IMG/VR virus record: IMGVR_UViG_3300017721_001026
Coordinates: 64,001-128,000 of that record
Origin: a virus
Lineage: Duplodnaviria > Caudoviricetes
Strand: one strand, 5' to 3'
DNA length: 64,000 bases
Shown here: in pieces, positions 12,265-26,548 of the stretch
Layout of the letters: the number at the start of each line of letters is the position of its first letter
Position numbering within the stretch: position 1 is the first letter of the stretch
Program-made: the position numbers and the translations under genes
The notes under the pieces: model-generated
Told to the model about the DNA's origin: nothing
Database searches by the model: none
The model's input: only the letters and a program-made list of their open reading frames with translations

Positions 12265-12322
12265 AATATAAGGTATTTCTGGGGCAAAGTCAAGACCTAG
12301 TGGACACCTTGCCAACTGTCCT
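12265..12322 (-). promoter_or_regulatory. early promoter cassette
   Basis: GGACAGTT-GGCA-AGGTGTCCAC, then TTGACT-17-TATATT. Confidence 0.75.
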
Positions 12323-12917
12323 ACTTTTTGTCTGACGTGCAACAAACAAATTTTGTGACAGCATATCTTTCATTCTCGATAACATCTGTAACACTGTGCT
12401 CAACCCATCCAGGAAATATAATTGTTCTATTATTTTTTGTTTCTATTTCTAGATCTTGCTTGGGAAAGTATAAATTTCCACCAGAATCCTCTTTATAGCA
12501 TAATGTGGTACTAATTAAAGCATGAACCCAATAGTCTGTATGTGGTTCATATCCATCACCAGGATAATATCTCCTAACTTTGGTATAATCTGTATCAGAT
12601 TTTTCATATGTCACCCAATATTGATTATTTTGTATCAAATCATCAAAAAATTTATCATCATTAAAGAAAATATCTCCAGTAATGTTTAGAATGTCGGAGA
12701 CAGATCTTTGACTATACAGTGCATCCAATGACATACCTTTTGCTGTTGTCATGTAGTTTCCATTTTCATCCTTTGCAGCATAATACTTTTCTGGATCATT
12801 CAATTTATCGAGAAGAAATTCAAGTTCTCTCCAAATCAGTTTTAGTTGTTCTGCATCGAAGGTATCTTCTATGATAATGTATGGAAATGGTTCGTTAAAA
12901 ATCTGGTAATTCATCAT
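12321..12917 (-). CDS. 2OG-Fe(II) oxygenase
   Basis: HTD ... GGNLYF ... IIFPGWVEHSV ... RYAV. Confidence 0.85.
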   Translation of the reverse strand: MMNYQIFNEPFPYIIIEDTFDAEQLKLIWRELEFLLDKLNDPEKYYAAKDENGNYMTTAKGMSLDALYSQRSVSDILNITGDIFFNDDKFFDDLIQNNQYWVTYEKSDTDYTKVRRYYPGDGYEPHTDYWVHALISTTLCYKEDSGGNLYFPKQDLEIETKNNRTIIFPGWVEHSVTDVIENERYAVTKFVCCTSDKK

Positions 12918-13110
12918 TCTGCTCCTCCAATAAGTCCTTCATAGTATCCATAAACTCATCTGCATGTCCTAAAGTATCTAAGGCATGGATCATTTCACCC
13001 AATGTCTTAACAATAAAAGGTTTCTCATTTCTTGCAGCAAATGCTAATGCTTCACGAAGATGTGTCTGAGCAGAGTCTAATTCGTCTTTAACTTGATCTG
13101 ATAGTGCCAT
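12895..13110 (-). CDS. hypothetical helical protein (HLREALAFAARNEKP)
   Basis: ORF track; coupled. Confidence 0.7.
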   Translation of the reverse strand: MALSDQVKDELDSAQTHLREALAFAARNEKPFIVKTLGEMIHALDTLGHADEFMDTMKDLLEEQNDELPDF

Positions 13111-13763
13111 TAGTTTTTTCTTCCTGTGTAGATTTTCTTTTCATTATCCCATTCAAAATGGTCAACCATTTCAACATCATCGTCACTTAAGTATAAACCC
13201 CATCCAGTTGCAATATATTTACTGCAAGAATATACGGGATTTCCACGATGAGTATGAGTGTAGAATGCTGGCCAAATTAACATCGTACCTGCCTTTGGTT
13301 GTACTCTGAGACCTTGCCAAAGAAACTCAGTTTCACCTTCACCTTCAGGAATGTCATTCAAATATAACATCCATGCAACACATCTGTCAACGACTCCTAG
13401 ATCATTTACCTCACAATGCCAATCATGAAATCCACCTCTAGGTGAAGTCTTTTGTATTTTTACCTCATCAAAATAGACATCAATATAATCAGAAACCCAA
13501 TACTTTTTACGGTATTGTTCCCAACAATGATCAACAACTTTTAGGACAAGATCTGCACAAGGATTGCCTGATTCCAAGTACCATTGTTCATCATGACGAG
13601 CAAGATAACCTCTCTCACTTTCATCTGAACCATATCCTGCTTTTATTTTACAATCAGAATCGTCGGGATGTTTATAGTTAGATTCAAAGTATTCAATAAC
13701 ATTGTCACATGTAGATTTATCTAATGAATTTAGATAAACACCAATAAAATCACTATCCTTCAT
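13110..13763 (-). CDS. 2OG-Fe(II) oxygenase
   Basis: WHCE ... MLYLND ... GETEF ... IWPAFYTHTHRGNP ... KYIATGW. Confidence 0.85.
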   Translation of the reverse strand: MKDSDFIGVYLNSLDKSTCDNVIEYFESNYKHPDDSDCKIKAGYGSDESERGYLARHDEQWYLESGNPCADLVLKVVDHCWEQYRKKYWVSDYIDVYFDEVKIQKTSPRGGFHDWHCEVNDLGVVDRCVAWMLYLNDIPEGEGETEFLWQGLRVQPKAGTMLIWPAFYTHTHRGNPVYSCSKYIATGWGLYLSDDDVEMVDHFEWDNEKKIYTGRKN

Positions 13764-15121
13764 ACAATCCAGGTTATGATAGAATATCTAGTTCCTTCAG
13801 TTACAGGTAAAATCTCATGTGGGTACATAAAATTAGATGGGAAAACTAATACATCACCAGCATTGAGTTTATACACTAATTCACGGTTGAATAGTGCAAC
13901 TTCACCACCTTCATAACCATCATTCATTGACATAATGACAGTCAATGCTCTAGGTTGGTCTTTAAATGAATCAGTATGCTGAATATAAAAGTCACCTTCT
14001 TCATACTTTAGTAGTTCATATCCACTATCTTCTTGAATCTCCAATTCAAATTCAGGATAACTTTCCTGATATTCTTCAATGATACCTTTTACAACATTAA
14101 AGAGATAATTATCAATTTCTCTCCTACCCTCTTGATTATTTTCCTCAATAACTGCTTGATCTGAAATTGGAATAAACTCACATCTTCTTGCATCTGGATC
14201 ATGCCCAGCACCAGTTAATGTACTCTCCCAATAGTTAGTTGGAGCATATTCTTCCAAAAGTTTATCGCAAAAATCTGGATCAATAAACTCTTCTTTGTGC
14301 CAGACAAAATGCTCCAAACTAAAACGACTTAATTCCTTTGTTTTAGTTTGTATTTCTGGTGTATTCTTAGGTTTAAGGAACTTTTCATATTTACTATTTG
14401 CTATAACAACGTCATCAAAATTGATATATTGTTCTGTTTCATCATCCTGTTCAATAATATCTAATGAGGATGACTGTTGATCTCTATATTTTTTAGGGAG
14501 AATTGTTTTTGTGGATACATGGTCAAATTTGTTTTTCATTTCATCATACTCCTTTTGTAGTGCTTCATGATCTTCAATGTCTTCTGTGATTAGTCTATCA
14601 AAATATGTGCAACCATACATTCCTCTACTTCTCACATAGTGTAAGAAGATTTGTGCATAATAGTCACCTTCAAATCTACCTCTCCAGTGTGGAGAAACAC
14701 AACCTAAGTATAACACAGCATCACCAGGATTCAAAGTGATGCATTTTTTTACACTTTCTGGTGTCTCAATCCAGATTGCCCAAGGTTTATCACCACCAAG
14801 ATGTACTGTCATTGATATTTCACAAGCAGGACGATCTGTGTGCCTCTTAAGAACACTGTCGTTGCGATATATTCTGGAGTAAGTATATGTTGGTAGAACA
14901 GTTTCACCGATAAGTTCACTAACTGTGCTAGTTTTATTGGTGAGTAATTCTATAGCAGGATGAAAGTTAAAGCATGATGAAGAGTTTGGTGCCTGTTCAT
15001 CACCTTCAAACTTAAATTGTGCGTCTGTTACGATAAACTCTGTTTCTAATCTTTTAGCATAATCTAAATCAATAAAACCAGGAACAACAATGTAGTTGTT
15101 TTTCAATAATTCAAGTTTCAT
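13760..15121 (-). CDS. tandem two-domain 2OG-Fe(II) oxygenase
   Basis: Domain 1: RHTDRPACEIS..HWR. Domain 2: QHTD..GGEV..FPSNFMYPHEI..RYS. Confidence 0.85.
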   Translation of the reverse strand: MKLELLKNNYIVVPGFIDLDYAKRLETEFIVTDAQFKFEGDEQAPNSSSCFNFHPAIELLTNKTSTVSELIGETVLPTYTYSRIYRNDSVLKRHTDRPACEISMTVHLGGDKPWAIWIETPESVKKCITLNPGDAVLYLGCVSPHWRGRFEGDYYAQIFLHYVRSRGMYGCTYFDRLITEDIEDHEALQKEYDEMKNKFDHVSTKTILPKKYRDQQSSSLDIIEQDDETEQYINFDDVVIANSKYEKFLKPKNTPEIQTKTKELSRFSLEHFVWHKEEFIDPDFCDKLLEEYAPTNYWESTLTGAGHDPDARRCEFIPISDQAVIEENNQEGRREIDNYLFNVVKGIIEEYQESYPEFELEIQEDSGYELLKYEEGDFYIQHTDSFKDQPRALTVIMSMNDGYEGGEVALFNRELVYKLNAGDVLVFPSNFMYPHEILPVTEGTRYSIITWIV

Positions 15122-15127
15122 ATGTCA

Positions 15128-16474
15128 TTACTTATCGTTTTTATCTAGAACTTCTTTTAATGCAGCAAACCATTTAACTGCCTTATCTAGAGGCATTCCA
15201 TTACCATCGTCTCTCTCATCATCTGTAAGAGTAGTGTATAGTTTTTCTGGATCAATTTCATCCATGAGTGACAAAATGTCATCAACACTATATTCTTGAC
15301 CACTCTCAATTTCTTGTCTCTCTATACTTTCTTTAGCAAGTTTAGATAGTTGACTTGGATCAGTGTTTTCTGCCTTATGTGATTCAAGAAGTTTTGCTCT
15401 TTGCACTTCTCTATACTCTTTCTCTGCCCTATCAAATTCTCTCTCTAATGCATCATCAAGTTCATCATATGTCTGTTCAATATCCATTTTCTTAAGAACT
15501 TCTTCATGAGATCTCATGATAATATCCATCTCATGATCAACTTCCTGTTGGAATTTTTTCTGTTCCAACTCATGATCAAGTTTCATTTTTTCTCTCTCAC
15601 GCACAACTTCTTCCATTGTAAATTGTGCATCACCCCATGCAGTTTCAAGTCCTTGCTTTTGAAGTTCAAGTTCCATTCTAGAAATTTCAATTTGTTCTAG
15701 TTCAAGTTCACGAACTTTATCATCATTTGCTCTCTTAAGTTCTTTTTCTTGCTCATCTTCAAGAATGTTCTTTTCGAGAAGTTCTGTTTCTCTTTCCATC
15801 TTATCACGTTCCATCTGAAGCAGTTCTTGATACTGCTTTCTTTCCTCAATAAATTCTTCCTTTTCTTTTTCAAAACTATGATAAAGTTCATCATACTTTT
15901 TAGAAAGTTCTAAAGACTTTTTCTGAAAGAATTCATCTGCTTTTTGTTGTTCAAGTGCTGCAACTTCTCTTTCTCTTGCTGCTTTTTCTCTCTCAAGTTC
16001 CATCAGAGTGGTTTGCCTATCATAGACACTTTTCTGTTCTTCTTTAGATTTTAGATCGTAAAGTTTTTCTTTCTCACTACGAAGTTCTTCATTTTGCTTT
16101 TGAAGATCATTAATGATGACAAGTTGTGCTTCTTTCTCAAGTTTATCAATGTTCAATTCTTCAATCTGCTTAGAAAGATTTTCCTCTTCTTCTAATGCCG
16201 CAGCAAGTTCTCTCTGCTCATAGATTGACAAGAATGTATTAAAATAGTCTAGATATGGTTGAACAATAGTATCAAATTCATCTTCACTAAAAATTTTATT
16301 TGGTACAGGATCTTCACCAATGACATCTTCATATTCTAATTCACCTCTGCCATCTCTCCACTGAATTGCATGGACAGTTTCATCATCAAAGTCCCAAGGT
16401 GCATTATCCTCAAGATCAACAGTCTTACCATCTACAATAATTTTTTTATCTTCTGGGATGATGGAAATTTTCAT
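15128..16474 (-). CDS. fibre-associated HAIQW-domain protein with a long acidic coiled coil (putative chaperone)
   Basis: ~85-aa N-terminal domain (IIPEDKKIIVDG..VHAIQW) plus ~300 aa of E/K/Q/L-rich helix; hand count 129 D+E vs 69 K+R. Confidence 0.55.
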   Translation of the reverse strand: MKISIIPEDKKIIVDGKTVDLEDNAPWDFDDETVHAIQWRDGRGELEYEDVIGEDPVPNKIFSEDEFDTIVQPYLDYFNTFLSIYEQRELAAALEEEENLSKQIEELNIDKLEKEAQLVIINDLQKQNEELRSEKEKLYDLKSKEEQKSVYDRQTTLMELEREKAAREREVAALEQQKADEFFQKKSLELSKKYDELYHSFEKEKEEFIEERKQYQELLQMERDKMERETELLEKNILEDEQEKELKRANDDKVRELELEQIEISRMELELQKQGLETAWGDAQFTMEEVVREREKMKLDHELEQKKFQQEVDHEMDIIMRSHEEVLKKMDIEQTYDELDDALEREFDRAEKEYREVQRAKLLESHKAENTDPSQLSKLAKESIERQEIESGQEYSVDDILSLMDEIDPEKLYTTLTDDERDDGNGMPLDKAVKWFAALKEVLDKNDK

Positions 16475-16857
16475 TGTTGTTCCTCGTCAGATTCGGGTAG
16501 TAAATTTTCTTCTTCATTATCTATACCTTCGATTTGTTCAATGTATTCAGAAACATTGACACCCTGTGCTTCACACATATCAAGATACATATTGCCAACG
16601 GCATCTAACATGTTCTGATTAGTTTCATGTGCCTTTGTCATTTCATTACGGAATGATTCAACAGCAGAACTTGTAGATCTTTGTTGTTGACTATTTTCAA
16701 TCATCAACATTGGCATCCATTGAACTGCACAAGACCAATGATCTACTGGATTTCCAGTGTTAGGATCTTGCCCAGTGATATGTGTATACCATGCACACTT
16801 ATGTTCGACACAATCTTTTTTAATAAGCGGACACCACTTGCCAGTTGATTTAGTCAT
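16471..16857 (-). CDS. Cys-rich fibre-associated protein
   Basis: CPLIKKDCVEHKCAWY...WSC, then ...AVESFRNEM helix. Confidence 0.65.
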   Translation of the reverse strand: MTKSTGKWCPLIKKDCVEHKCAWYTHITGQDPNTGNPVDHWSCAVQWMPMLMIENSQQQRSTSSAVESFRNEMTKAHETNQNMLDAVGNMYLDMCEAQGVNVSEYIEQIEGIDNEEENLLPESDEEQQ

Positions 16858-16876
16858 AAGATAAAATTCAGTGTAT

Positions 16877-16884
16877 TATTTATT
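16877..16884 (-). promoter_or_regulatory. T4-type late promoter
   Basis: AATAAATA within ATAAATAATACAC, a 13-mer identical to the one at 18731-18743. Confidence 0.6.
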
Positions 16885-16893
16885 ATAGCACGA

Positions 16894-18156
16894 TCAATCC
16901 AAACTGCAAAGAATCACATCAATATATTGAACTCTCAATGGTGATAATCCTGCTGTAAATGATATTGGAGATCCAGTAAATGGATGAACGTGTGCTTGAC
17001 CACCACCAGTTGATGATGTTGCAGGTGCTTGAGTATTATTTGCCCTGATAGTACCACCAGGACTCAAAGTTCTCAATGGGAATCTTATACTCGTAACTTG
17101 AGGATATCTTTGAGGTGTACGATATGCTCTTGGTTGTCTATAGGATGCAGGATTTCTTTGAGGAACTGTTATTCTAAACGGAATATCCACTCGGAAACCA
17201 TTTCTCTGCCTGAATGAATATCTCACTCTAAATGTTCTCGGTTGCCTCTGTCTAAAATCTCTTCTCTGCCTACCATTTCTGGGTTGTCTAAAGTTACGAG
17301 GTTGACGGAAAGATCTTCTCTGTCTTCCAGATACAGGTCTTCGAGTTTGCCTTCTTTGCCTATAACTTGTATTTCTAGGTTGTCTTCTTACTGCTCTTCT
17401 TGGGAATCTATCGTTTCTTCTACGTCTCCCTCCTCTTCTTCTTGGTTCTCTATCATTCCTTCTTACACCAACACGGAAAGAGTTTGGAATTGGTCTTCTA
17501 CTTCTTCCACCACCCTGACGGAAACTAAATGGTGCTCTAGATCTTAATGGAACACGGAAAGGAACAGGAACTCTGAAAGTAAATGGATTTCTAGAACGTG
17601 TTTGATATCTAACTCTAAAGTTTCTTGGTTGTCTCTGTCTAAGTGGAACTCTCTGCCTTTGTGGTTGTCTATAGTTAAGAGGTTGTCTTACATTTGTTGG
17701 TTGTCTAAAATCGACACTAACTCTAGTGTCTAGAACAATTCTAGTTGATGCTCTAATATTATATCCACGTGGTTGTCTATTATTTTGTCTAAATGGTGAA
17801 GAACCTTCGGAAGATCTATATGAATTAGGATTACTTCCAGTGTTATGTGTATGTGCAGGAAGTTGATCTGTTGTTAATGTTGTTGGTCCAGTGCTTCCTG
17901 AAAGAGTTGAAGAAACAGTGCTGTCTGCACCAGAATCATTAAATAATGTAGTGAAACTTACAGATCCAGCAGATGATCCACCAGTACCATCAACAACTCT
18001 AAGTGATTTATCGTTTTCTGATATATCTTTAGTCCAACCAGTTGGTGCTGCCGCCTGGTAAAATACCATCGTAGAGGATTGAGGAATAATCCCGTAAAAA
18101 CTATTTAACTGACTGCCACCACCAAACTGAATTCCGTCTGCCTTTAAAATTGACAT
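16894..18156 (-). CDS. short tail-fibre/collar-type protein with an Arg-rich hexapeptide-repeat insert
   Basis: FYQAAAPTGW collar motif, LTTDQLPAHTH ... GGGQAHVH, YIDVILC; ~75 Arg in residues 121-371. Confidence 0.7.
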   Translation of the reverse strand: MSILKADGIQFGGGSQLNSFYGIIPQSSTMVFYQAAAPTGWTKDISENDKSLRVVDGTGGSSAGSVSFTTLFNDSGADSTVSSTLSGSTGPTTLTTDQLPAHTHNTGSNPNSYRSSEGSSPFRQNNRQPRGYNIRASTRIVLDTRVSVDFRQPTNVRQPLNYRQPQRQRVPLRQRQPRNFRVRYQTRSRNPFTFRVPVPFRVPLRSRAPFSFRQGGGRSRRPIPNSFRVGVRRNDREPRRRGGRRRRNDRFPRRAVRRQPRNTSYRQRRQTRRPVSGRQRRSFRQPRNFRQPRNGRQRRDFRQRQPRTFRVRYSFRQRNGFRVDIPFRITVPQRNPASYRQPRAYRTPQRYPQVTSIRFPLRTLSPGGTIRANNTQAPATSSTGGGQAHVHPFTGSPISFTAGLSPLRVQYIDVILCSLD

Positions 18157-18166
18157 ATCTTATACC

Positions 18167-18703
18167 TCAACTAAAACGACAGAGAATGACATCAATATAT
18201 TGAACTCTCAGATCAATACTTCCAGAATATGGTGATGCTCCACCAGAAAATGGGTGAGTATGTGATGTTCCACCACCAGTTGGTGATGTTGCAGGTGCAT
18301 CAGAATTTACAGCACGTCCACCAATACCAGGAGATCCAGGACTTACGTTAACTTGAGAACCCGCATTGTGTGTATGTCCAGGAATTTGCTGAGTGGTCAA
18401 TGTTGTTCCTCCAACAGTACCAACAGCAGTTACAGTTCCACTAATTGGACGAGTTGATGTGGGAAATATGGTAGAGAATGGTTGTCCACCAGGACCAGCA
18501 GTTCCACCAGAACCAAATCCTCCACCAGAACCAGATACAACTCTAAGTGCTTTATTATTATGAGTGGTTACTTGTGCCCATCCACTGGGTGCTGATGGTT
18601 GATAAAACACTGCTACACTATTCTGAGGAATAATGCCATACTTAGAGTTTAAAACAGTATTATCAAGTCCAAATTGTATACCACTCGTTTGCAGAATAGA
18701 CAT
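18167..18703 (-). CDS. short tail-fibre/collar-type protein (paralogue without the insert)
   Basis: FYQPSAPSGW, LTTQQIPGHTH, GGGTSHTH, LRVQYIDVILC. Confidence 0.75.
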   Translation of the reverse strand: MSILQTSGIQFGLDNTVLNSKYGIIPQNSVAVFYQPSAPSGWAQVTTHNNKALRVVSGSGGGFGSGGTAGPGGQPFSTIFPTSTRPISGTVTAVGTVGGTTLTTQQIPGHTHNAGSQVNVSPGSPGIGGRAVNSDAPATSPTGGGTSHTHPFSGGASPYSGSIDLRVQYIDVILCRFS

Positions 18704-18736
18704 ATTATACCAATTACTAACAACGGATACGTGTAT

Positions 18737-18744
18737 TATTTATC
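18737..18744 (-). promoter_or_regulatory. T4-type late promoter
   Basis: GATAAATA about 35 nt upstream of the ATG. Confidence 0.6.
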
Positions 18745-19402
18745 CAATATTAAATGCGATAGATATTCTCTCATTGTCACTAAAATGTGGTGTAACATAA
18801 TGCCCAACTGTAGAAGGCATTAAATACAACCTATTTACCTCAGGTTTAATTACCCATTCACAATGATTGGGGACATCGGCAAATGCAGCATTATGATTTG
18901 ATGGATCAGTTCTGAGAATAGTTAAGTTTCCCTCGTTTTCTTCAAGATTATCAGGAATCATTGGATAATAGATTCCAATAACTGAGCAACCAGGATGTGT
19001 ATGAAAGACGTTGTAACCCATTCCTTTGTTGATGTTAATCCACCAACCAATTTGCTCATCACTAACTCTTGACCCAGAACCACAATCTTCTAACATATCA
19101 TTTGTCAGGTCAATAACATTTCTAGCAAGATTTTGGATTGCAGGTGTAACTCCTCTCCGTATTTCACATAATTCAAAAACTTGACTTTGCCACCCATCTG
19201 CAAAGTTAGATTTCCTAACTCCATTCGGATACTTATCTTTTAGTTCAAAACACTCATCAACAATTTCTTGATTATCAAAATCTAATTTATAATCAAAAAA
19301 TGGTGTGGTGAACAATTCAATTCTATCCCTAGTTTCTACTTCTATAGGAACAAAATTATCATCATTTGGTTTTACTTCTGGTCTAAATCTATGCTCTGTC
19401 AT
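18740..19402 (-). CDS. 2OG-Fe(II) oxygenase (TIGR02466-like)
   Basis: WININ..YNVFHTHPG ... PS..GHYV ... RISIAFN. Confidence 0.8.
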   Translation of the reverse strand: MTEHRFRPEVKPNDDNFVPIEVETRDRIELFTTPFFDYKLDFDNQEIVDECFELKDKYPNGVRKSNFADGWQSQVFELCEIRRGVTPAIQNLARNVIDLTNDMLEDCGSGSRVSDEQIGWWININKGMGYNVFHTHPGCSVIGIYYPMIPDNLEENEGNLTILRTDPSNHNAAFADVPNHCEWVIKPEVNRLYLMPSTVGHYVTPHFSDNERISIAFNIG

Positions 19403-20133
19403 TATTCTCTTGCCCTAGGATTCCTGAAGAAAAATACTTGATTAATTCTAAACTCAGCATCACTATAGTGATCCGCAAAGTAATTTTTACCCGTAAGATC
19501 CATACTGTGATAATAGTAAGATCCCTCAAACATAACAAATCGATTGAACTTTGATCGAAATCTAACTACAATTTCCCACAAATCTTTAGGTGTCCATGGA
19601 ATAGCATGTTCATCTCTCACACCACCATTCTCATCTAAGGGTAAAATTTTTGGATTGTCAGTAACAGTTGGTTTATATAAATTTGTTCCAATCTCTTCTT
19701 TCTTTGAAAGATAGCAGATACCATTATATCCTCCATCGTGATGTGGCCACCAAAAATGAGTGTCATGTGGGTTTTCTTTAACTTTCGAGAATCTTGTGAA
19801 ATTAGTTACAATCTCATCATCTAGAGGTTGTTGATTACAAATATTGCTAAGTTTATTATATAATGAACAGATACCAGGATGTTTCATCATATGTCTGCGA
19901 TCTTCAAAGTATTTGGTATTAAGAGTTCCTCTACCTAAATCCCATTCTGGTCCAACTTTCCATAGTGGTGGTTCAATCGAAAGTAAGTAACTATAAACAT
20001 CATCAGGTCTTTTATAAAAGTTATCCATCCAATAAAGATTAGATACTCTATTACCATCAACAAACTCAATAATATTCATATTTGAGAAATCATTAGTCTC
20101 AAATAGTGTTGGATCTCTTCTCAAATCTCTCAT
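19402..20133 (-). CDS. 2OG-Fe(II) oxygenase-like protein (DUF6445-like)
   Basis: DNFYKRPDDV, PHHD..ICYL..GTNLY, FNRFVMF..YHS, RINQVFF. Confidence 0.7.
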   Translation of the reverse strand: MRDLRRDPTLFETNDFSNMNIIEFVDGNRVSNLYWMDNFYKRPDDVYSYLLSIEPPLWKVGPEWDLGRGTLNTKYFEDRRHMMKHPGICSLYNKLSNICNQQPLDDEIVTNFTRFSKVKENPHDTHFWWPHHDGGYNGICYLSKKEEIGTNLYKPTVTDNPKILPLDENGGVRDEHAIPWTPKDLWEIVVRFRSKFNRFVMFEGSYYYHSMDLTGKNYFADHYSDAEFRINQVFFFRNPRARE

Positions 20134-20693
20134 AAAAATATTTCTCCTATCTTTTCATCGTCTAAACAAAAACCAAACACCCATAGTATTCTAGGATTAT
20201 CACCTTTGGTTACAGTAACTTCATGGTGAATTTCAGATACTTGATATATTAAAAGATCTGTAGGATCTAAGTCAGTATATTCTACACCACCAATGATAGT
20301 ATGTCCACCCCTATCGGCATGTTGTGTAATGGCATTAAAATGAACTGTTTTCGTATCTGGATAATATGTAGGATCAATATGTTCTTCTATTCTTCCACCA
20401 GAATATCCAATACCATTTACAATCCCATGACTATATGATGGAGGACTTTTGTATTCATACAAGTCAAAGTAATTTATAATTCTTTGTCTGGCAATGTATG
20501 CGGCATCAGGATAATCTATACTTGGAGCAACTGATTCATTTGGAAACCGAGTTGTAAACCTTGTTCCAGAATTATCAGGATCCATGTTAGCATCCTCAAA
20601 GAACTCTTGACAGCAGTTATCAATAGTCCATTGATTTAGTTTTCTTACATCATCTTGAAATAGAAAGTTTCTGAGAACAAATGATTTAGACAT
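20130..20693 (-). CDS. 2OG-Fe(II) oxygenase
   Basis: EHIDP ... GG ... SEIHHEVT ... RILWVFGF; start moved to MSKSF. Confidence 0.75.
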   Translation of the reverse strand: MSKSFVLRNFLFQDDVRKLNQWTIDNCCQEFFEDANMDPDNSGTRFTTRFPNESVAPSIDYPDAAYIARQRIINYFDLYEYKSPPSYSHGIVNGIGYSGGRIEEHIDPTYYPDTKTVHFNAITQHADRGGHTIIGGVEYTDLDPTDLLIYQVSEIHHEVTVTKGDNPRILWVFGFCLDDEKIGEIFL

Positions 20694-21354
20694 CGGTTGT
20701 GCAGTATTCACTTGAATTTTGACTTTCTTCTTCAAATGAAAAGATTTCATACTCCGTATTAACATTAAATGATAAAATTATTCTATCTACATCACTTTGA
20801 TTTGGTGCAGTATAGTGGAGAACATATGATGGAAAAAATATCATTGATCCCTCTCTAATTCCAGGTGGAATAATATTACAGGTTTCAACATCTGCCAGAT
20901 TAGGATTCAAAAAGATAGTTGGTGTATGATGTTTTGGATCAAATTGAACAAAACAAACTGCACTGAATCCTTGAGACCCATGGTTATGAACTTGATGAAA
21001 CTTAGTGGTTGATGCTTTCTCAAACCATGAAGTACAAACTTCTACACCACATTCAAATGTATCAGCAAGTGCTTCTAACTCATCCCTAAAAAGATCCATG
21101 ATTAGTTCATCATAGGTCTCTCCATGGTCATGATTAAAATGATAATCAGTCTCTACATCTAAACTGGTTTCACTTCCTGTGGCAACTTTAAATTTAGATT
21201 TATCAGATTTTCTTCTCTCATACATTTCAAGAAGTTCTTTTTTCTTTTCCTCCCAATTTTCTATCTTAAGATGTAGAAGTGGAGTAGAGAACATAGGAAT
21301 TAAATATTCTTCATTTCCATTTGGTACATCACCATAAATTGCAAATTCAGTCAT
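20686..21354 (-). CDS. 2OG-Fe(II) oxygenase (TIGR02466-like)
   Basis: HQVHNHG ... FFPSYVLHYT ... RIILSFN. Confidence 0.8.
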   Translation of the reverse strand: MTEFAIYGDVPNGNEEYLIPMFSTPLLHLKIENWEEKKKELLEMYERRKSDKSKFKVATGSETSLDVETDYHFNHDHGETYDELIMDLFRDELEALADTFECGVEVCTSWFEKASTTKFHQVHNHGSQGFSAVCFVQFDPKHHTPTIFLNPNLADVETCNIIPPGIREGSMIFFPSYVLHYTAPNQSDVDRIILSFNVNTEYEIFSFEEESQNSSEYCTTDV

Positions 21355-22917: not shown

Positions 22918-23082
22918 TCAGAGAAATTTAAGTGTTTCTTGTTGTTTAAAATATAATTTTATATATGACTTAAGAGCCGTTCTTAGTTCTTCAATATCCT
23001 CAATTTTATCGATATCTCTTGAAAGTCTTTCATACTCAAAAGATTTTGATGGAGTTCTTAAAGAAATCTCAGATGGGTTCAT
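22918..23082 (-). CDS. nblA: NblA-like phycobilisome degradation protein (54 aa)
   Basis: MNPSEISLRTPSKSFEYERLSRDIDKIEDIEELRTALKSYIKLYFKQQETLKFL; two-helix pattern resembling NblA; AAAGGA RBS. Confidence 0.5.
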   Translation of the reverse strand: MNPSEISLRTPSKSFEYERLSRDIDKIEDIEELRTALKSYIKLYFKQQETLKFL

Positions 23083-26317: not shown

Positions 26318-26548
26318 CTATTTATTATATACACCTCTGGGATACATCTGACCAGACTGTGGTCTCCCTGGTGCATTCCACCCACGTTGCTGTGTAGTTA
26401 ATCCCACAACAGAAAAATTAACACCAAGTAAATTTGCATCACGAAATATAGGATTTAATGTTATTGTTGTTACTTTTGTTGATTGAAAACCAGTAGATAA
26501 ACCAGAAGATTGAACTGATCCTAATGATGGGATAGAATAATCTGCCAT
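26318..26548 (-). CDS. small structural partner protein (copy 2)
   Basis: MADYSI...RPQSGQMYPR; paralogue of 28259..28537. Confidence 0.7.
   Translation of the reverse strand: MADYSIPSLGSVQSSGLSTGFQSTKVTTITLNPIFRDANLLGVNFSVVGLTTQQRGWNAPGRPQSGQMYPRGVYNK

Follow-up and report, generated by a model that had tools for sequence, protein, structure and literature searches.

A late tail-fibre cassette of a cyanophage with a polycationic fibre tip, an acidic Tfa-like chaperone and a linked two-domain 2-oxoglutarate oxygenase

Fe(II)/2-oxoglutarate (2OG) oxygenases rank with the most frequent genes of marine cyanophages that lack an explanation, and they are routinely filed under host metabolism. Whether some of them might serve the virion is the question raised by a 64,000-nucleotide stretch of viral DNA (positions 64,001 to 128,000 of IMG/VR record IMGVR_UViG_3300017721_001026; hereafter the window, whose own positions are used throughout), in which tail-fibre genes stand within a run of oxygenase and oxygenase-like genes. 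The window is part of a 153.8-kb viral contig; its nearest isolate is Synechococcus phage S-SCSM1, with 79.7% nucleotide identity across the whole stretch, and its source is an S-SCSM1-like T4-type cyanophage (cyanomyovirus). A first-pass annotation had been made from the window alone. Twelve open reading frames (ORFs) were found here at the coordinates given, all on the minus strand, in the transcribed order ox222, ox211, ox243, ox220, fib178, fib420, cys128, cc448, ox453, ox217, p71 and ox198, which is also the order of S-SCSM1 ORF240-251. What is defensible is a conserved late cassette that runs fibre tip(s)-Cys4 protein-Tfa-like chaperone-two-domain oxygenase, with the polycationic tip and the acidic chaperone as the elaboration of one clade. 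Beyond this it seems to us on balance probable that the locus is a late tail-fibre module with a five-gene cassette, in which an acidic chaperone shields a polycationic tip and the oxygenase most likely hydroxylates a protein encoded by the cassette itself.

The conservation of the cassette was followed in loci collected from two anchors, fib178 (70 loci) and cys128 (80 loci), which were annotated with jackhmmer families; it was counted over 91 unique cys sequences, and a reverse survey was anchored on the N-domain of ox453 (45 unique loci). These loci are related and represent the best-scoring 80 matches per scan, so that the fractions given below describe conserved synteny and not independent events.

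Fibre tips, Cys4 partner and charge-tracking chaperone

The core of the cassette would comprise two paralogous fibre tips, a Cys4 partner, a Tfa-like assembly chaperone and a two-domain Fe(II)/2OG oxygenase. The first fibre gene, fib178 (18167..18703, minus strand), encodes a bare collar-like tail-fibre tip domain with two HxH motifs, as judged from alignment and profile matches, and the second, fib420 (16894..18156, minus), encodes a paralogue whose loop between these motifs is enlarged by a long insert; the proteins are alike in their N- and C-terminal parts. Across an alignment of 30 fibre sequences (A1) the four histidines of these motifs (H110, H112, H148 and H150) are invariant, and they are at least 90% conserved in 173 + 39 additional fibres. 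The family profile built on A1 matched solved tail fibres, namely 9qgo_A from the Photorhabdus extracellular contractile injection system (E = 1.4e-11) and 9nxk_A from phage Pa223 (1.3e-7). By these common ends, invariant motifs and profile matches fib178 and fib420 are tail-fibre tip domains, and the first-pass claim of two paralogous short fibres is borne out. No Pfam model, the tail-collar family PF07484 included, matched the fibres at E < 0.1. The AlphaFold model of fib178 was of low confidence (pLDDT 65) and Foldseek found nothing in the PDB at E <= 0.001, the model being of a monomer while the fold is expected to be trimeric. The S-SCSM1 orthologue of fib178, ORF244, has been annotated as a 'virion protein', and for ORF245, the orthologue of fib420, the authors' supplement gives an HHpred match to T4 gp12 at 99.2% (PMC9602691); ORF245 does not carry the 'virion protein' annotation.

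The insert of fib420 (284 aa; 16993..17844, minus) stands out by composition, as it holds 76 Arg, no Lys, 31 Pro and 27 Gln and has a net charge of +68. Arginine recurs with periods of 6 and 12, and hydrophobic residues alternate at lag 2. Residues 173-184 of fib420 are directly repeated at 302-313, about 129 residues away, and no tandem repeat was found in the insert DNA. A mirror-symmetric hairpin was considered and rejected, as the mirror identity of 16% is about chance for such a composition and the repeat is a direct one. The dN/dS ratio of the insert (0.31-0.42) is near that of the flanking tip domain and indicates purifying selection, its length is constant at 284 aa in many diverged orthologues, and a [R/Q][Q/N]P motif is present 8-15 times in every insert lineage, also where the Arg content falls to 11-13%. 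The insert is thus a constrained structural element and not a drifting low-complexity sequence. Its bearer may be set beside the metal-binding tips of T4 gp12 and gp37, with which these proteins share HxH motifs and, by prediction, trimeric fibre ends, and from which they differ in that fib178 is a shaftless tip domain and nothing more, and in that the 284-aa polycationic loop of fib420 has no counterpart there.

Behind the fibres lies cys128 (16471..16857, minus), a small protein with five cysteines, of which four (C9, C16, C21 and C43) are invariant, and with a conserved helical block, AVESFRNE. Its AlphaFold monomer model is of low confidence (pLDDT 58). The family counts 2886 clusters and has no Pfam model. 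A fibre-tip gene adjoins cys upstream in 86/86 unique loci, so that the Cys-rich protein noticed among the fibres at first reading turns out to be a universal neighbour of the tip family. The same succession of fibre and cys is found in the Roseobacter podovirus CRP-361, in P-SSM2 and in S-B05. The Cys4 protein is a widespread, unnamed partner of the fibre-tip family, which is a result by itself. It also follows fibre-tip genes in prophages of Mesorhizobium, Nitratidesulfovibrio, Undibacterium, Variovorax and others (L228-L279), almost always without oxygenases.

The next gene, cc448 (15128..16474, minus), encodes a Tfa-like chaperone made up of an N-domain, some 300 Pro-free acidic helical residues and a short conserved C-terminus. 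A homologue adjoins cys in 70/70 loci. The first 50-80 residues are homologous to the N-domains of CRP-361 gp41 and of PSSM2_030 (P-SSM2 gp030), which occupy the same gene position: residues 1-49 matched gp41 at 1.8e-7 in blastp, and jackhmmer joins both sets. These positional homologues carry the tail-assembly chaperone domain PF16778 (3.3e-20 in gp41 and 8e-12 in PSSM2_030), and cc448 itself had no Pfam match and so has no PF16778 domain; in its place stand the acidic helical residues. The idea of a dedicated chaperone for the fibre is thereby upheld. The protein has a net charge of -60, and residues 74-372 are Pro-free and rich in Glu, Lys and Leu. It had been described as an acidic coiled coil; the acidity stands, and the heptad signal is weak (lag-7 autocorrelation 0.07), so that 'long charged helix' is the safer label and a single charged helix is no less likely than a coiled coil.

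Modules of a tail fibre and a Tfa chaperone are textbook matter. The window resembles such modules (PF16778, Phage_tail_APC; of the Mu, P2 and lambda type) in having the helper gene behind the fibre genes and in the homologous N-domain of the helper. It differs from them in that there the genes of fibre and helper are immediate neighbours and here the Cys4 protein, which has no described counterpart, always stands between fibre and chaperone, and in that cc448 lacks the PF16778 C-domain and has about 300 acidic helical residues instead.

Fibre and chaperone are matched in charge, as had been claimed at the outset. Over 16 unique insert-bearing loci the charge of the fibre and that of the chaperone are inversely correlated (Pearson r = -0.78), and the covariation persists after phylogenetic correction, with a correlation of -0.74 (p about 0.001) for independent contrasts on a tree of the other cassette proteins. 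An Arg-only tip and an acidic chaperone that tracks its charge together make a clear case, found in nature, of charge complementarity that co-evolves. Chaperone tails with charges of -19 to -54 were also found beside neutral, insert-less fibres, and the acidity must therefore be older than the insert.

A two-domain oxygenase linked to the cassette

The gene behind the chaperone, ox453 (13760..15121, minus), encodes two domains, of which the C-terminal one is a PF13640 2OG oxygenase domain (8.3e-16). Its nearest, weak PDB matches are PPHD (4iw3, solved with EF-Tu; 3.4e-4) and PiuC (about 0.01). The N-domain had no Pfam match, and the best hit of a PDB profile search, to Tet-like enzymes, was at 0.33, with nothing significant. 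An HxD...H pattern (H94, D96 and H145) is invariant in 12 homologues (alignment A6), and the domain matches phrog_2954/3531. The C-domain likewise retains HxD...H. The two domains are fused in some loci and are adjacent separate genes in others. The N-domain family carries the name 'ferrochelatase' in RefSeq and PHROG (S-PM2, Syn30, ACG-2014f and others), yet it has the HxD...H pattern and no ferrochelatase Pfam match, and the name appears to be a misannotation that has been passed on.

The order fibre(s)-cys-Tfa-oxygenase is near-universal across the loci. A gene of the ox453N type lies at most 3 kb downstream of cys in 65/70 unique loci, and a PF13640-type gene in 66/70; the background density is 10 oxygenase ORFs per 266.6 kb of flank more than 5 kb away. 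Read from the other end, a fibre tip lies upstream in 44 of the 45 unique loci anchored on ox453N. Two contigs, of 138 kb and 84 kb, have the ox453-like gene as their sole PF13640 match, and both times it lies within the cassette. P-SSM2 has a collagen-repeat fibre, cys, a PF16778 chaperone and PiuC, which is the order of the cassette. The link had originally been thought to rest on the Arg/Pro-rich fibre. That does not hold, as insert-less fibres are accompanied by the same cys-Tfa-ox453 set, and the link therefore cannot be explained by Arg/Pro repeats.

The layout of the genes points to common transcription. Late-promoter-like motifs lie on the minus strand at 18737-18743, in front of fib178, as (G)ATAAATA+ATACAC, and at 16877-16883, in front of cys128, as (A)ATAAATA+ATACAC; they read AATAAATA and GATAAATA, each then followed by ATACAC. 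The first-pass annotation had placed late promoters at 16877 and 18737, and an ATAAATA motif is indeed present at both sites, while the exact TATAAATA was found at neither 16877-16883 nor 18737-18743. The window has 11 ATAAATA sites, all on the minus (coding) strand, against an average of 22 in shuffled sequences; a motif that is depleted and confined to the coding strand fits a functional late-promoter element. One of these sites, at 26319, is directly upstream of the gene for a 1022-aa virion protein. Among 79 related loci the first fibre gene is preceded by the late motif, at a distance of at most 90 nt, in 62, and the cassette oxygenase in none (0/79). The median spacing is a 4-nt overlap between cys and Tfa and a 17-nt gap between Tfa and the oxygenase. 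In the window the coordinates agree with the reported 6-nt gap and subsequent overlaps: 6 nt separate cc448 from ox453, and overlaps of 4, 1 and 23 nt join the genes that follow. As to the further claim that the downstream oxygenases are packed behind the late promoter, ox453 proves a faithful member of the cassette, and ox217 and ox198 do not occur in some of the loci that bear the insert.

At another site (L280:2995-6168, S-SCSM2R ORF232-235) there are three small proteins of about 180 aa, fibre-tip-like or 'baseplate', behind which come a wcaG RNA and a 530-aa 2OG oxygenase. A set of cys, Tfa, ox453 and glycosyltransferase-like genes lies 38 kb from these ORFs in S-SCSM2R, without an adjoining fibre gene.

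Possible targets of the oxygenase

From the synteny, the motifs and the charges we infer a scheme for the whole. The fibre tips would dock by their N-terminal part and trimerise by a C-terminal part that bears the two HxH motifs, which are predicted metal sites. One fibre of the clade would then have gained the 284-residue Arg/Gln/Pro-rich, beta-patterned insert at its distal loop, and this probably forms an extended polycationic tip that binds anionic polymers of the host surface. The chaperone would have gained its long acidic helix, with a charge that tracks the insert, and most likely keeps the polycation shielded while the fibre folds and assembles. The two-domain oxygenase, whose transcription would start at the late promoter of the fibre, has as its most likely substrate a protein of the cassette, with the fibre as best guess. 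Hydroxylation of the fibre is in this sense the most likely single role of ox453, and it is put forward tentatively. A bolder version, which we find doubtful, would have aquatic myoviruses hydroxylate the tips of their own receptor-binding fibres by means of the cassette's dedicated two-domain 2OG oxygenase and sister lineages then glycosylate them, the substrate here being a polyarginine beta-needle of about 40 nm that is solubilised by a co-evolving polyanionic helical chaperone.

Several observations weigh against the scheme. No modification has been observed. The Arg-rich fibre is not reported from S-SCSM1 virions, though a tryptic digest would be nearly blind to such a protein. Cassettes without an oxygenase exist, in CRP-361, in S-B05, in L141/L145/L148/L150 and in nearly all of about 45 bacterial prophage loci, so that the oxygenase is dispensable for this type of fibre. 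Two-domain paralogues of ox453 (about 35% identity) lie away from fibre, cys and Tfa in S-T4 and ACG-2014f; in S-T4 they form an OX3-OX2d-OX3 array within an 11-kb stretch behind the same helicase, without fibre, cys or Tfa. A residue of the tip scaffold or of cys that is conserved solely in oxygenase-bearing cassettes was looked for, and none was found. The charge correlation comes from just 16 sequences, of which loci L027-L030 deviate (+40 to +49 against -26 to -30), and the shared ancestry of the surveyed loci counts on this side too. Collagen-like GXY runs were considered as a general substrate and rejected, since the P-SSM2 fibre alone has them.

Some of these points bear equally on a different explanation, in which the oxygenases are auxiliary genes in a hyperplastic island, acting on host metabolites, on host proteins such as translation factors or on secondary metabolites, and in which adjacency to the fibre is inherited synteny with no link in function. 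In S-SCSM1, genes of the kinds seen in the window are among 24 2OG oxygenase genes, scattered over the genome and read as metabolic (PMC9602691), and the ten dioxygenases of the tandem array in Syn9, halogenases and a JmjC/MINA member included, have been interpreted as pathways that make metabolites (PMC2938197). The window array is like those of the Syn9 type in that many dioxygenases of several families stand in a row, and unlike them in being split by, and partly co-transcribed with, fibre genes. The fibre-free S-T4 array behind the same helicase fits this explanation, and so do the PDB relative PPHD with its EF-Tu complex and the position of the four upstream oxygenases, ox222, ox211, ox243 and ox220, which precede the fibre's late motif and lie behind sigma-70-like sites at 22886-22858 and 21423-21394 (the latter, TTGACA-18-TAAAAT, being just 5' of ox222; scans for sigma-70 sites and intrinsic terminators gave no enrichment over shuffles). 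The families are also far more widely recorded than the fibre: the ox220 type was found in 136 phage records, the ox243 type in 37 (all without the fibre) and the ox453 type in 191, as against 8 for the fibre and 13 for cys. The occurrence of the same oxygenases in phages that lack these fibres, which the first-pass annotation had named as an outcome that would tell against it, is thus partly the case. What such cargo leaves unexplained is that an ox453-type gene follows cys-Tfa in 94% of unique loci where about 10% would be expected, that it is the sole PF13640 gene of two long contigs and has no promoter motif of its own, and that it is constant while the genes downstream vary (extra oxygenases, p71/DUF7717, glycosyltransferase arrays or another fibre). 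The island explanation suits the six flanking genes best and ox453 least, and as an account of the locus we consider it rather unlikely.

It is also conceivable, if quite improbable, that the oxygenase acts on cys128 or on the chaperone, or serves as an O2-, Fe- or 2OG-sensing switch for fibre assembly, and does not decorate the finished fibre. The cys-Tfa-ox453 set of S-SCSM2R, which is accompanied by glycosyltransferase-like genes and has no adjoining fibre gene, speaks for a helper as target, as does the higher conservation of cys relative to the fibres (mean column identity 52% against 42%); cys is, however, just as conserved in oxygenase-free cassettes, and we know of no precedent for such a role.

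The pattern of linkage suggests that tail-fibre assembly has one or more oxygenase lineages built into it, and the cassette offers a concrete alternative to the metabolic filing of these genes that is testable in cultured S-SCSM1 on Synechococcus WH7803. Were the fibres indeed hydroxylated or glycosylated, host-range prediction from sequence only would miss a layer, and the O2, iron and 2OG supply of the infected cell could affect virion quality. If borne out, hydroxylation by an enzyme would be described for the first time in a phage virion protein, and some of the abundant cyanophage 2OG oxygenase genes would have a function.

Flanking oxygenases, sister lineages and related systems

The first-pass annotation had counted seven 2OG oxygenase genes with eight domains of at least four sequence types, and a Pfam 2OG model above its curated (gathering) cut-off was here taken as the criterion of identity. 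Five genes pass it. Through PF13640 these are ox198 (12321..12917, minus; 2.5e-9), the last gene of the run, ox217 (13110..13763, minus; 1.2e-10), which overlaps the end of ox453 by 4 nt, and ox453 by its C-domain; through PF13759 they are ox220 (18740..19402, minus; 2.8e-14), directly upstream of the fibres, and ox222 (20686..21354, minus; 3e-10, with phrog_81 at 2.5e-38). The N-domain of ox453, ox243 and ox211 do not pass. Of these, ox243 (19402..20133, minus) is a DUF6445-like protein (9.6e-4, below the cut-off) of phrog_1644 (6e-31) with a weak tie to the 2OG fold (14% to ox198 in hhalign), and ox211 (20130..20765, minus), which had no Pfam or PHROG match, is a putative 2OG-type protein by its Atlas features (match of 0.95 to a cluster with 59% PF13640) and by hhalign to ox198 (22%, where ox198 and ox217 give 100%). 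Its true start is probably Met25, about 20693, where the Atlas record and the 187-aa S-SCSM1 ORF241 both begin and which would cut its overlap with ox222 from 80 to 8 nt. Motifs like an iron triad are HTD in ox198 and in the ox453 C-domain, HHD in ox243 and HID in ox211 (residue 129); for the PF13759 pair an HxE or HxH pattern was seen, without mapping to the fold. With the HxD...H pattern and PHROG matches of the ox453 N-domain, eight oxygenase domains are plausible, and there are five sequence types (PF13640, PF13759, ox453N, ox243 and ox211), so that the count largely holds, with ox243 and ox211 weakly tied. Five of the eight PF13640/PF13759 matches on the 153.8-kb contig fall within this 9-kb stretch.

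As to the kind of enzyme, arginyl hydroxylases of the YcfD family had been suggested. None of the seven oxygenase-candidate proteins matched JmjC, Cupin_4 or Cupin_8 at E < 0.1, and the suggestion is not supported; in the PDB the relatives, all of them weak, are prolyl hydroxylases and PiuC. Besides the relatives of ox453 these are, for ox217, the prolyl 4-hydroxylases (P4Hs) of PBCV-1 (5c5t) and Bacillus anthracis (3itq), at 4e-4 to 5e-4. The nearest PDB relatives of ox220, 3bvc and 2rg4, are of unknown function. As to peptide motifs that a prolyl 4-hydroxylase could use, the P-SSM2 fibre has 35 GXY triplets and the insert of fib420 has [R/Q][Q/N]P repeats, and most oxygenase-bearing cassettes have neither.

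The fullest form of the original model, a battery of seven oxygenases whose targets are Pro and/or Arg within the polycationic fibre's RQP-type repeats, draws on co-occurrence: every insert-bearing locus has ox243 and ox220 as its upstream neighbours and no insert-less locus does, most insert-bearing loci have ox217 downstream, and the [R/Q][Q/N]P motif is found repeatedly in all insert lineages, those with the lowest Arg content included. The PBCV-1 P4H, which ox217 weakly resembles, acts on Pro-rich repeats. On the tree, however, the co-occurrence goes back to one clade and is effectively one event, and some insert-bearing loci (L014, L017 and L022) lack ox217 and ox198 while their insert is unaltered. 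Oxygenases had been expected to vary with the insert; ox243 and ox220 do so, within the one clade, and ox453 is present regardless. With no JmjC- or YcfD-type arginyl hydroxylase signal, with ox211 and ox243 not established as oxygenases and with four upstream genes outside the late operon, the model appears improbable. The six other oxygenase genes would be clade-specific additions around the cassette with a putative tie to the fibre. Taken as a whole, the first-pass observation was largely right and its interpretation is partly supported: it holds for a fibre with a dedicated, charge-tracking helper and for an oxygenase link, and it goes too far in assigning all seven enzymes to Arg/Pro repeats.

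Sister lineages without the insert carry additional genes that may bear on modification. Their cassettes (L043:12589-20366, L099:3991-9276, L100:3540-5916 and L078:8060-12237) have, behind the oxygenase, three to five paralogues of some 270 aa each that resemble glycosyltransferase family 25 (GT25). With S-SCSM2R genes that carry a glycosyltransferase annotation they share 38-67% identity; PF01755 (GT25) matched 6 of 13 of them, at best at 5.8e-5, and their profile matches the mimivirus glycosyltransferase R655 (9crz) at 8.7e-4. There was no NCBIfam match and no single-sequence PDB match, so that the weak GT25 and R655 matches come through per-member Pfam and profile searches only. Behind them follow genes for a DegT-type aminotransferase, an AspH-like protein and a carbamoyltransferase; none of these four kinds of gene is found on the contig of the window. 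GT25-like and sugar-modifying genes placed after an oxygenase fit a route of hydroxylation followed by glycosylation, and the arrays may be the glycosylation arm of the same module.

A comparable arrangement was predicted by Iyer, Abhiman, de Souza and Aravind (2010) for bacterial operons, in which co-encoded tail-collar or collagen-like proteins would be dioxygenase substrates, hydroxylated and then further modified (PMC2938197). The likeness lies in a 2OG dioxygenase co-encoded with a tail-collar-type protein, and it is a prediction there as here. Those operons belong to cells, and in them enzymes of the beta-hydroxylase/PhyH kind are paired with sulfotransferases, whereas the cassette of the window belongs to a virion module, has cys and Tfa partners and a different two-domain oxygenase, and is joined by GT25-like transferases in sister lineages. 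Two viral cases are also alike in part: the P4H of PBCV-1, a viral enzyme of this type near a Pro-containing repeat protein, which ox217 matches at 4e-4, and the collagen hydroxylase/glycosyltransferase of mimivirus, through the match of the sister-locus family to R655. Both enzymes belong to giant viruses of eukaryotes, act on structural proteins of the virus itself and have collagen or (PAPK)n-type substrates. For phages, the literature searched gave no report that a fibre or another virion protein is hydroxylated.

Two small genes complete the picture. Between ox217 and ox198 lies p71 (12895..13110, minus), which encodes a small acidic helical protein of phrog_1179 (6e-22); it was found by jackhmmer in 63 loci, insert-less ones included, mostly right after the oxygenase(s), and may be a further member of the cassette. 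Upstream of the run, a 54-aa ORF at 22918-23082 on the minus strand stands where S-SCSM1 annotates a phycobilisome degradation protein (nblA), with TTGACA-17-TAGACT upstream of it at 23199-23171.

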